Below, piece by piece: positions 36,074 to 59,529 of a stretch of 64,000 nt of DNA. This stretch comes from Escherichia coli (lineage in GTDB: Bacteria > Pseudomonadota > Gammaproteobacteria > Enterobacterales > Enterobacteriaceae). Where the stretch lies: the NCBI RefSeq assembly GCF_044647545.1, contig NZ_CP172818.1, one strand, 5' to 3'. A program made the position numbers and the translations under genes. The notes beneath the pieces are model-generated. The model searched no databases. It was not told the origin of the DNA and saw nothing but the letters and a program-made list of their open reading frames with translations. Each line of letters begins with the position of its first letter. Position 1 is the stretch's first letter.

Positions 36074-36118
36074 AAAGCAACCTCAATAAGAAAAACTGCC
36101 GCGAAGGATAGCAGGAAT

Positions 36119-36483
36119 AAAAAAAGGGAGCACTGTATTCACAGTGCTCCCGGTTCGTTTCGCAGCATTCCAGCTACTTTTGTTGCTCCCTGCTCATCCT
36201 TGACAACTTTTCCTCTGGCCTTGCGGCCAATCGTTCATCCTGAACTATTGCTTCCTGCTCACACCACCCCGATGTGATACTTCATCCTGAAGTGTCCCTG
36301 GCCTTCCTGACCCACCGAATCATCCTGACCGGTTCTCATTCTCCATCCTGGAGGTGTCCTTTAACGCGTCCTGCGTCATCCTCTTCGCTTCATCCAGAAG
36401 CCTTTCCCTGAAACACCATCCTGGTGTGTCCTTCAGAAGTGTCATCATCCTGATGTTCACTTCGTTGTCTGACTCCCTGTCGA
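36119..36483 (-). ncRNA. csrB: CsrB small RNA (CsrA-sequestering)
   Basis: On the + strand, at least 6 perfect CATCCTG (CAGGAUG in the transcript) plus several variant GGA motifs within about 360 nt; terminator gggagcactgtgaatacagtgctccc + U-run at the 3' end (36119-36151). Confidence 0.9.
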
Positions 36484-53658: not shown

Positions 53659-54576
53659 TTATTGTTCATAACGAAAGCGGAATTTTTCTTGTTCAGCAGC
53701 GGCTTTCGCCAGGATCCATTGACGAAAGGCGGCTATTTTACCCAGTTCTGCCTGGCTGTCATGACAAACCAGATAAAAAGCGTTTTTACTGACCAGAACA
53801 TCATTAAACGGGCAAACAAGACGTCCGGCTTCAATTTCAGATTGCGCCATCACGTTATTTGCCAGCGCCACTCCCTGCCCGTGGATAGCCGCTTGCAGCA
53901 CCATGGCGCTATGGCTAAAAATTGGCCCTTGCTGAACGTTGATATGATTTAACCCCAACTGTCGGGTATATGTCTGCCAGTCACGGCGTGACGCATCATG
54001 TAATAACGTATGTTTAGCCAGATCTTCCGGGGTCTTCAAGGGTTTTTCGCCAGTCAGCAGTAGCGGCGAACACACCGGCAATAAATATTCGGCGTACAGT
54101 TTTTCCACCCGTAGCCCCGGCCAGTTGCCACGACCATAAAATATCGCCACATCAACATCATCCGCCAGCTTATCTTCCTGACGATCAACCGCCTGGATTC
54201 GAACGTCAATTCCCGGATAAGCTGAATTAAAGCTGGAAAGTCGCGGAACCAACCAATGAATGGCGAAACTGGGGAGTAAACTGACCGTCAACGCCCCCTT
54301 GGCGCTACGGGCCTGGAGTTTACGCGTCGCTTCGGTTAATTGCGAAAATATCTCTTTGATATCGAGGAAATAGCTTTGCCCTTCCTCGGTCAGCAGGAGT
54401 GAACGATTACGGCGGCGGAACAGTTTTAGCCCCAAAAAATCCTCAAGAGACTTGATTTGATGACTTACTGCGGCCTGGGTCACAAAAAGCTCTTCTGCTG
54501 CGCGAGTGAAACTTAAATGGCGTGCTGCGGCATCAAAAACTCGTAAGGCATTTAGCGGTGGTAATCGTTTAGACAT
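53659..54576 (-). CDS. gcvA: LysR-family regulator of the glycine cleavage system
   Basis: 305-aa ORF; N-terminal LysR HTH (MSKRLPPLNALRVFDAAARHLSFTRAAEELFVTQAAVSHQI). Confidence 0.95.
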   Translation of the reverse strand: MSKRLPPLNALRVFDAAARHLSFTRAAEELFVTQAAVSHQIKSLEDFLGLKLFRRRNRSLLLTEEGQSYFLDIKEIFSQLTEATRKLQARSAKGALTVSLLPSFAIHWLVPRLSSFNSAYPGIDVRIQAVDRQEDKLADDVDVAIFYGRGNWPGLRVEKLYAEYLLPVCSPLLLTGEKPLKTPEDLAKHTLLHDASRRDWQTYTRQLGLNHINVQQGPIFSHSAMVLQAAIHGQGVALANNVMAQSEIEAGRLVCPFNDVLVSKNAFYLVCHDSQAELGKIAAFRQWILAKAAAEQEKFRFRYEQ

Positions 54577-54704
54577 GGCTTTTAAACTTTGATGTTAAAT
54601 GAATTTAACAATTAGATCACACTGTGTAACCTATTAGTTTTTTTAATCTGAGCCATTATAAATTGTCCGTTGAGCTTCTACCAGCAAATACCTATAGTGG
54701 CGGC

Positions 54705-54910
54705 ACTTCCTGAGCCGGAACGAAAAGTTTTATCGGAATGCGTGTTCTGGTGAACTTTTGGCTTACGGTTGTGATGTTGTGTTGTTGTGTTTGCAATTGG
54801 TCTGCGATTCAGACCATGGTAGCAAAGCTACCTTTTTTCACTTCCTGTACATTTACCCTGTCTGTCCATAGTGATTAATGTAGCACCGCCTAATTGCGGT
54901 GCTTTTTTTT
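54705..54910 (+). ncRNA. gcvB: GcvB small RNA
   Basis: acttcctgagccggaacgaaaag...; GU-rich seed gttgtgatgttgtgttgttgtgtttgc; terminator gcaccgcctaattgcggtgc + T8; divergent from gcvA. Confidence 0.92.
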
Positions 54911-54926
54911 ACCTTGCGATCGCGAA

Positions 54927-55154
54927 TTACTGATCCAGTTCGACCATCTCTTTCACGTCAGTACGGTTGATCTGCTGTTTGTTGCCATTAGCGTCTTTAT
55001 ACGAAATCATACCGGTATCGTTATCAGTCTGTGGTTTGCCGTCAGAGACGATGGTACGTCCGTCATTGGTGTGCATCACATAGTTCGAACCGGAACAGGC
55101 GCTCAGGGCAAAAGTCAGCATACAGGCAGAAATAATTGCGGCAGTCTTTTTCAT
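54927..55154 (-). CDS. ygdI: DUF903 lipoprotein
   Basis: 75-aa ORF with lipobox (LSAC) after a signal peptide. Confidence 0.85.
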
Positions 55155-55345
55155 CATCTTCTCCTTAAAGCGATTAATAAATCTTAATAGTATTGATTAA
55201 CAGGCTAAAATTAACGCCTAACACTATTCAGCATATGTTACTGACGCGGCTTCGCCAGGATATCCAGATAATTCTGATGGTTAGCACTCTCCTTGTATCA
55301 AAGTGAATTTTGCGTCACGATCGGTGCATCAAGCCGAGGAGTACC

Positions 55346-59232: not shown

Positions 59233-59309
<77 letters not shown>

Positions 59310-59342
59310 ATTAAAATTTGATGAAGTAAAGCAGTACGGTGA

Positions 59343-59419
<77 letters not shown>

Positions 59420-59452
59420 ATCAAAATTTAATGAAGTAAAGTAGTACGGTGA

Positions 59453-59529
<77 letters not shown>

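Follow-up and report, generated by a model that had tools for sequence, protein, structure and literature searches.

The interval between the genes for the LysR-type regulator GcvA and the lipoprotein YgdI raises a simple question, namely, what is encoded there and which of the intergenic bases serve its control. The answer can be given to the base. Within the window, by which we mean the whole 64-kb stretch of DNA that was analyzed, it is practically certain that 54705-54910 on the plus strand is the E. coli gcvB gene and that 54577-54704 is the control region that gcvB has in common with the divergent gcvA. The locus is organized as follows.

53659-54576, minus strand: gcvA, LysR-type regulator; a 305-aa ORF that matches NCBIfam NF008352 and is annotated as gcvA in RefSeq E. 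coli genomes.
54577-54704, no strand assigned: divergent gcvA/gcvB control region, 128 bp, 34% G+C, from the gcvA ATG to the gcvB 5' end.
54705-54910, plus strand: gcvB small regulatory RNA, 206 nt, by RF00022, identity to K-12 b4443, and a fold z-score of -3.6.
54927-55154, minus strand: ygdI, convergent lipoprotein gene (NF033216, YgdI/YgdR, 113 bits), the downstream neighbor, outside the system.

The preliminary description had placed a GcvB RNA of about 206 nt between gcvA and ygdI, divergent from gcvA, and had let this claim stand or fall with a covariance-model match. When Rfam 15 was run over the entire window at gathering thresholds, the GcvB family (RF00022) matched 54705-54910 on the plus strand, that is, 206 nt, with 199 bits against a gathering threshold of 42 (E = 1.1e-46), and the match covers the model in full, from position 1 to position 204 of 204. 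The coordinates of that description all hold, and the flanking ORFs are those named in it: the gcvA product scores 512.8 bits against NF008352, 'transcriptional regulator GcvA' (cutoff 288), with residues 1-304 aligned to profile positions 1-304 of 305, in effect, the full length, and GcvA and YgdI, as well as CsdA, all exceed the curated NCBIfam cutoffs. The last intergenic base is 54926, and the ygdI ORF ends at 54927 on the minus strand; the RefSeq product of ygdI is 75 aa long and starts at 55154. The ygdI ORF as delimited mechanically (54927-55157, minus strand) begins with two ATG codons (MMKK..., 76 aa), of which RefSeq takes the second.

Other RNAs can also be recognized in the window. 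The CsrB sRNA (RF00018) is present in full length at 36116-36475 on the minus strand, with 382.9 bits against a gathering threshold of 71, and displays repeated AGGA/GGA hairpin loops and a terminator. Three tandem tRNA-Met genes (anticodon CAT) lie on the plus strand at 59233-59309, 59343-59419, and 59453-59529, with a spacing of 110 bp and about 61.4 bits each; this cluster, 59233-59529, resembles the metZWV initiator-tRNA cluster of E. coli.

The comparison with K-12 MG1655 leaves little to interpretation. The K-12 record carries the ncRNA gene gcvB (b4443, "small regulatory RNA GcvB") at 2942696-2942901, between gcvA and ygdI in the same order, and the RNA at 54705-54910 is identical to it in 206 of 206 positions. 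The two genomes also agree in the spacers (128 bp from the gcvA start to gcvB and 16 bp from gcvB to the ygdI stop codon), in the promoter hexamers, and in both terminators, t1 and t2. Aligned over 54577-54926, they share 348 of 350 bases, and the only two mismatches, T at 54581 (A in K-12) and G at 54624 (A in K-12), both fall in the upstream control region, the former five bases ahead of the ATG of gcvA, the latter at -81 relative to gcvB, outside the putative GcvA sites IR1 and IR2 and outside the -35 and -10 hexamers of gcvB. The 54400-55200 segment is identical in at least 10 other complete E. coli genomes, and, of 5426 complete genomes of the species, 5425 contain this 801-bp stretch, 5388 of them with an identity of at least 99% and many without a mismatch; because of this distribution, the window can be assigned to the E. 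coli chromosome. Among the same 5426 genomes, the segment is unmatched in one, occurs in two places in another, and in one place lies on a plasmid. The gcvB ncRNA feature is missing from the RefSeq PGAP annotation of most strains, which, given that K-12 annotates gcvB, reflects an annotation habit or gap and is not evidence of absence.

The anatomy of the RNA can be traced from the 5' end to the terminator. The predicted fold (-62.1 kcal/mol) is far more stable than those of 200 dinucleotide shuffles (-47.1 +/- 4.1 kcal/mol), none of which reached this value, and comprises, in this order, stem-loop 1 (SL1), an open linker, stem-loop 2 (SL2), stem-loop 3 (SL3; nt 114-128), a further hairpin region, and the terminator. 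The elements of the RNA are these.

54711-54765, plus strand: SL1 (nt 7-61), from the minimum-free-energy and centroid folds and the Rfam consensus structure.
54766-54797, plus strand: R1, the G/U-rich linker (nt 62-93), 84% G+U with only 2 C.
54798-54816, plus strand: SL2 (nt 94-112), from the fold and covariation.
54818-54838 (stem 54818-54832), plus strand: SL3 followed by T6, the internal terminator t1, GGTAGCAAAGCTACC; terminator scan, -6.9 kcal/mol.
54839-54854, plus strand: R2, CACUUCCUGUACAUUU (nt 135-150), highly conserved in the Rfam consensus.
54852-54878, plus strand: R3, putative third pairing region (nt 148-174), from the coordinates of PMC3536696 transferred to the identical RNA.
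54882-54910 (hairpin 54882-54903), plus strand: terminator t2, AGCACCGCCTAATTGCGGTGCT followed by T7; terminator scan and Rfam terminal stem.

SL1 is reported to be one of the two contact sites of the sponge RNA SroC (PMC9299463, PMC4474525). R1, which lies between SL1 and SL2 and is predicted to be largely unpaired in the centroid fold, is the main seed for target mRNAs (PMC9299463, PMC3536696), and its core, TGATGTTGTGTTTGCA, is kept across our alignment, partly through the way in which loci were selected. The G/U-richness for which R1 had been singled out is real, but, by itself, not rare: across both strands of the 64-kb window, 310 overlapping 32-nt windows equal or exceed it in G+T content, so that the composition corroborates the identification without being diagnostic. 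The ground for naming the RNA GcvB is the covariance model together with the identity to K-12, not the composition of R1. R2 (CACUUCCUGU) matches the Rfam consensus exactly and is single-stranded by prediction; this region has a role in the repression of cycA (PMC9299463, PMC3658540). R3 is involved in pairing with phoP and lrp (PMC3536696) and contains the SroC site BS2. The terminator, which had been called strong, indeed has a stem of 8 bp, of which 6 are G-C, closed by a 6-nt loop; it folds at -13.8 kcal/mol and runs into 7 T. According to PMC1557403, which cites Urbanowski et al. 2000, termination at t1 gives an RNA of about 130 nt and termination at t2 one of 206 nt, and the two terminators of the window sit where these published sites and product lengths would place them.

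Could this stretch of DNA encode something else? An ATG-initiated ORF of 46 aa exists mechanically at 54738-54878 on the plus strand, and Superficieibacter has an equivalent of 43 aa with the same start, so a small protein might be made instead of the RNA function or alongside it, as in dual-function sRNAs. We consider this very improbable: there is no Shine-Dalgarno sequence in the 20 nt that precede the ATG (GAACGAAAAGTTTTATCGGA), the ATG itself is embedded in SL1, and, of 19 homologues, 18 lack the ORF or have a different one, their longest ORFs encoding 7-44 aa from other starts. Furthermore, the conservation follows the logic of an RNA structure, with compensatory changes in the stems, and the GcvB RNAs of E. 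coli are reported not to be translated (PMC1557403). The missing Shine-Dalgarno sequence, the start codon inside SL1, and the non-conservation in 18 of 19 homologues led us to reject the small-protein reading. Even harder to believe is that the interval acts purely in cis, as the region where ygdI transcription terminates or as an extension of the gcvA regulatory region, and produces no transcript of its own, inasmuch as the position of the t2 hairpin, 16 nt past the ygdI stop codon and with A8 before it on the minus strand, which would fit such a role, is outweighed by a complete promoter at the proper distance from the 5' end that the covariance model assigns, by the T-tails of t1 and t2 that are both on the plus strand, by the poor U tract that follows the hairpin on the minus strand (ACATTAATCACT), by the linkage of the RNA to gcvA rather than to ygdI in Pasteurellaceae and other families, and by the experimental detection of the GcvB transcript in E. 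coli and Yersinia (PMC1557403, PMC9299463).

With an independently transcribed regulatory RNA as the preferred reading, the second part of the question, that is, how gcvB and gcvA share the bases between them, comes to the fore. The divergent region had been delimited as 54577-54704 and expected to hold the GcvA sites, and its boundaries turn out to be exact, from the gcvA ATG to the first base of gcvB. The proposed scan for a promoter retrieved a sigma-70 promoter, and the published GcvA repeats map inside the region, where they would be expected to function as binding sites. The control elements are as follows.

54611-54615, no strand assigned: extra ATTAG (CTAAT on the gcvA strand), from a motif search.
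54633-54647, no strand assigned: putative GcvA site IR1, ATTAGTTTTTTTAAT, centered at -65 from the gcvB start, with a 9-of-10 match to the published ATTAG-N5-CTAAT; it also fits the published ATTA-N7-TAAT.
54655-54669, no strand assigned: putative weak GcvA site IR2, ATTATAAATTGTCCG, centered at -43, with the position taken from PMC5002191.
54655-54660, minus strand: candidate gcvA -10, a perfect TATAAT, from a relaxed scan; overlaps IR2.
54670-54698, plus strand: gcvB sigma-70 promoter, with -35 TTGAGC at 54670-54675, a 17-bp spacer, and -10 TATAGT at 54693-54698, from the promoter scan.

The -10 hexamer of gcvB ends 7 nt before the first base of the RNA, and IR2 directly adjoins the -35 hexamer; the block CATTATAA(A/T)TTGTCC at IR2 is kept across Enterobacterales. 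The account of the gcvA-gcvB intergenic region in PMC5002191 reports that GcvA protects 48 bp, that a CTAAT motif and the inverted repeat ATTA-N7-TAAT are important for its binding, that two 15-bp repeats, ATTAG-N5-CTAAT, have their centers at positions -65 and -43 relative to the start of gcvB, and that the gcvA and gcvB promoters overlap. The extra ATTAG is one of two occurrences of ATTAG/CTAAT in the 128 bp, compared to 0.13 expected from the window-wide frequency, and, judging from the motif, it might possibly represent an additional GcvA half-site. The standard promoter scan found no minus-strand gcvA promoter in the control region; the candidate went unlisted because its best -35 is poor (CTGGTA, 3 of 6). 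Nevertheless, the perfect TATAAT that reads from 54660 to 54655 could well be the -10 of gcvA, which would agree with the promoter overlap described in PMC5002191.

A comparative survey places this arrangement in a broader context. The pattern TTGTGTTTGCA-N30-60-CACTTCCTGT, made of the R1 and R2 cores, was scanned in 100,044 species genomes, one per species, and recovered at least 120 loci, with nearly all of the matches listed coming from Enterobacterales and Pasteurellaceae. A tblastn search with the GcvA of the window detected a homologue (46-99% identity) at 103 of these at least 120 loci among the matches listed, and, in all 103, the homologue is divergent from the RNA. Among the same matches, the distance from the GcvA N-terminus to the R1 core is mostly about 160-250 bp, with a range of 110-369 bp and a single value of 491 bp; at the 491-bp locus, the tblastn match to GcvA starts only at residue 95. 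No GcvA homologue was found by tblastn at 17 loci among the matches listed, 14 of which have less than 240 bp of upstream flank; the loci in Paenibacillus (L062) and Flavobacteriales (L080), along with L103, yielded no GcvA by tblastn despite a larger upstream flank. A locus in Borreliella (L059), one of the 14, has neither GcvA within the 183 bp of its upstream flank nor an Rfam GcvB match. These four loci, L059, L062, L080, and L103, are probably chance matches to the 21 specified bases. In contrast, the Rfam GcvB model matched in full length, with 85-188 bits, at 19 of 19 loci chosen for diversity.

The structure of the RNA was examined in a MAFFT alignment of 20 sequences, those of the window and of 19 species of Enterobacterales and Pasteurellaceae. 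The invariance of the R1 and R2 cores in this set, including the first 10 nt of R2, holds by construction because the loci were picked by exact cores; the synteny, the covariation in the stems, and the upstream boxes are independent of this selection. In SL2 and SL3 taken together, 95.9% of the cells in the alignment are paired, and compensatory double changes occur in 9 of 11 pairs, that is, in all 6 counted pairs of SL2 and in 3 of the 5 pairs of SL3. None of 500 shuffles matched SL2 and SL3, and stems shifted in register paired in only 14-38% of the cases. The count is confined to SL2 and SL3, as MAFFT did not bring SL1 and the terminator of Pasteurellaceae into good register with those of Enterobacterales. 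Applied to the same 20-species alignment, RNAalifold retrieved no more than SL2, SL3, and a portion of the terminator; the long-range pairing of R1 with R2 that it suggested in addition is made of invariant columns and is, accordingly, uninformative either way.

The control region shows a comparable regularity. A box resembling ATTAG-N5-NTAAT scores 7-10 of 10 across the 20 species, and its center falls between -63 and -66 in 16 of them, whereas the remaining four, all Pasteurellaceae, have it between -45 and -49. At three of these four loci, L031, L036, and L058, the Rfam alignment extends about 15 nt further in the 5' direction than in the other species, and the box is found at -49; because of these two features, the true 5' end of the RNA at these loci probably lies about 15 nt downstream of the model-derived end, which would bring the box near -65. 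The promoter is similarly constrained: TTGAnn-17-TATAGT ends at -7 in 11 of 12 Enterobacterales, including the window, and, in Plesiomonas, TATAGT ends at -8.

Across Salmonella, Yersinia, and Pasteurellaceae, GcvB appears with the same divergent gcvA, the same R1 and R2 cores, SL2, SL3, and terminator architecture, and a box at about -65, whereas SL1 varies in sequence and length. E. coli and Superficieibacter have a longer R1, with an insertion of 8 nt relative to the Rfam consensus, and the GcvA of Pasteurellaceae is only about 47-54% identical to that of the window. A likeness of another kind links this locus with oxyR-oxyS, where, too, a LysR regulator is divergent from an Hfq-dependent sRNA, which it activates, and represses its own gene via overlapping promoters (PMC5002191). 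The differences are in the effector, oxidation in one case and glycine, via GcvR, at gcvA-gcvB, in the RNAs, which are unrelated, and in the number of inverted repeats, two at gcvA-gcvB and three at oxyR-oxyS (PMC5002191).

The layout of the locus is consistent with the mechanism established for GcvB. It has been reported that GcvA activates gcvB at high glycine and, jointly with GcvR, keeps it repressed under glycine limitation (PMC3658693, PMC3536696), with Lrp as a further repressor of gcvB (PMC3536696), and that GcvA represses its own gene via the gcvA-gcvB intergenic region (PMC5002191). GcvB is Hfq-dependent and represses many mRNAs of amino-acid and peptide transporters and metabolic enzymes, with R3 acting on phoP, lrp, and others (PMC9299463, PMC3536696, PMC3658540), and the pairing of SroC with SL1 and R3 leads to the decay of GcvB by RNase E (PMC4474525, PMC9299463). 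Given that the RNA is identical to that of K-12, we infer that the response to glycine, the roles of GcvA and GcvR, the need for Hfq, and the set of targets, all established in K-12, would apply to this strain as well. In such a scheme, GcvA would bind the ATTAG-N5-NTAAT repeats that immediately precede the -35 hexamer of gcvB and, with abundant glycine, activate the TTGAGC-17-TATAGT promoter, whereas, with scarce glycine, GcvA and GcvR together would repress gcvB; the same binding would overlap the gcvA promoter on the opposite strand and so cause autorepression. Transcription would then stop at t1, for a product of about 130 nt, or run on to t2, for one of 206 nt. Bound to Hfq, the full-length RNA would pair with C/A-rich stretches close to where ribosomes bind on numerous messages that serve the transport and metabolism of amino acids and peptides, oppA, dppA, and cycA among them, with repression as the predicted outcome. 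This pairing would involve mainly the G/U-rich R1, but also R2 and R3, and SroC, in turn, would act as the sponge that destabilizes GcvB.

The locus is, then, already known, its mechanism is established, and it harbors nothing novel. The sole value of the exercise is that of a quality check: the preliminary description recovered, to the base and from raw sequence alone, a known sRNA with its limits and the region that controls it. The two substitutions at 54581 and 54624 might slightly alter the translation or autoregulation of gcvA, which we regard as rather unlikely, and a comparably tentative suggestion concerns t2, which, because it lies 16 nt from the ygdI stop codon, with A8 ahead of it on the minus strand, could also help to end ygdI transcription and so be a bidirectional terminator shared by the two genes. 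On the minus strand, the 54870-54929 segment contains this same hairpin, which may act as a weak bidirectional terminator. If t2 does function in both directions, read-through from either gene would create an antisense overlap, and the expression of ygdI would become coupled to that of gcvB.
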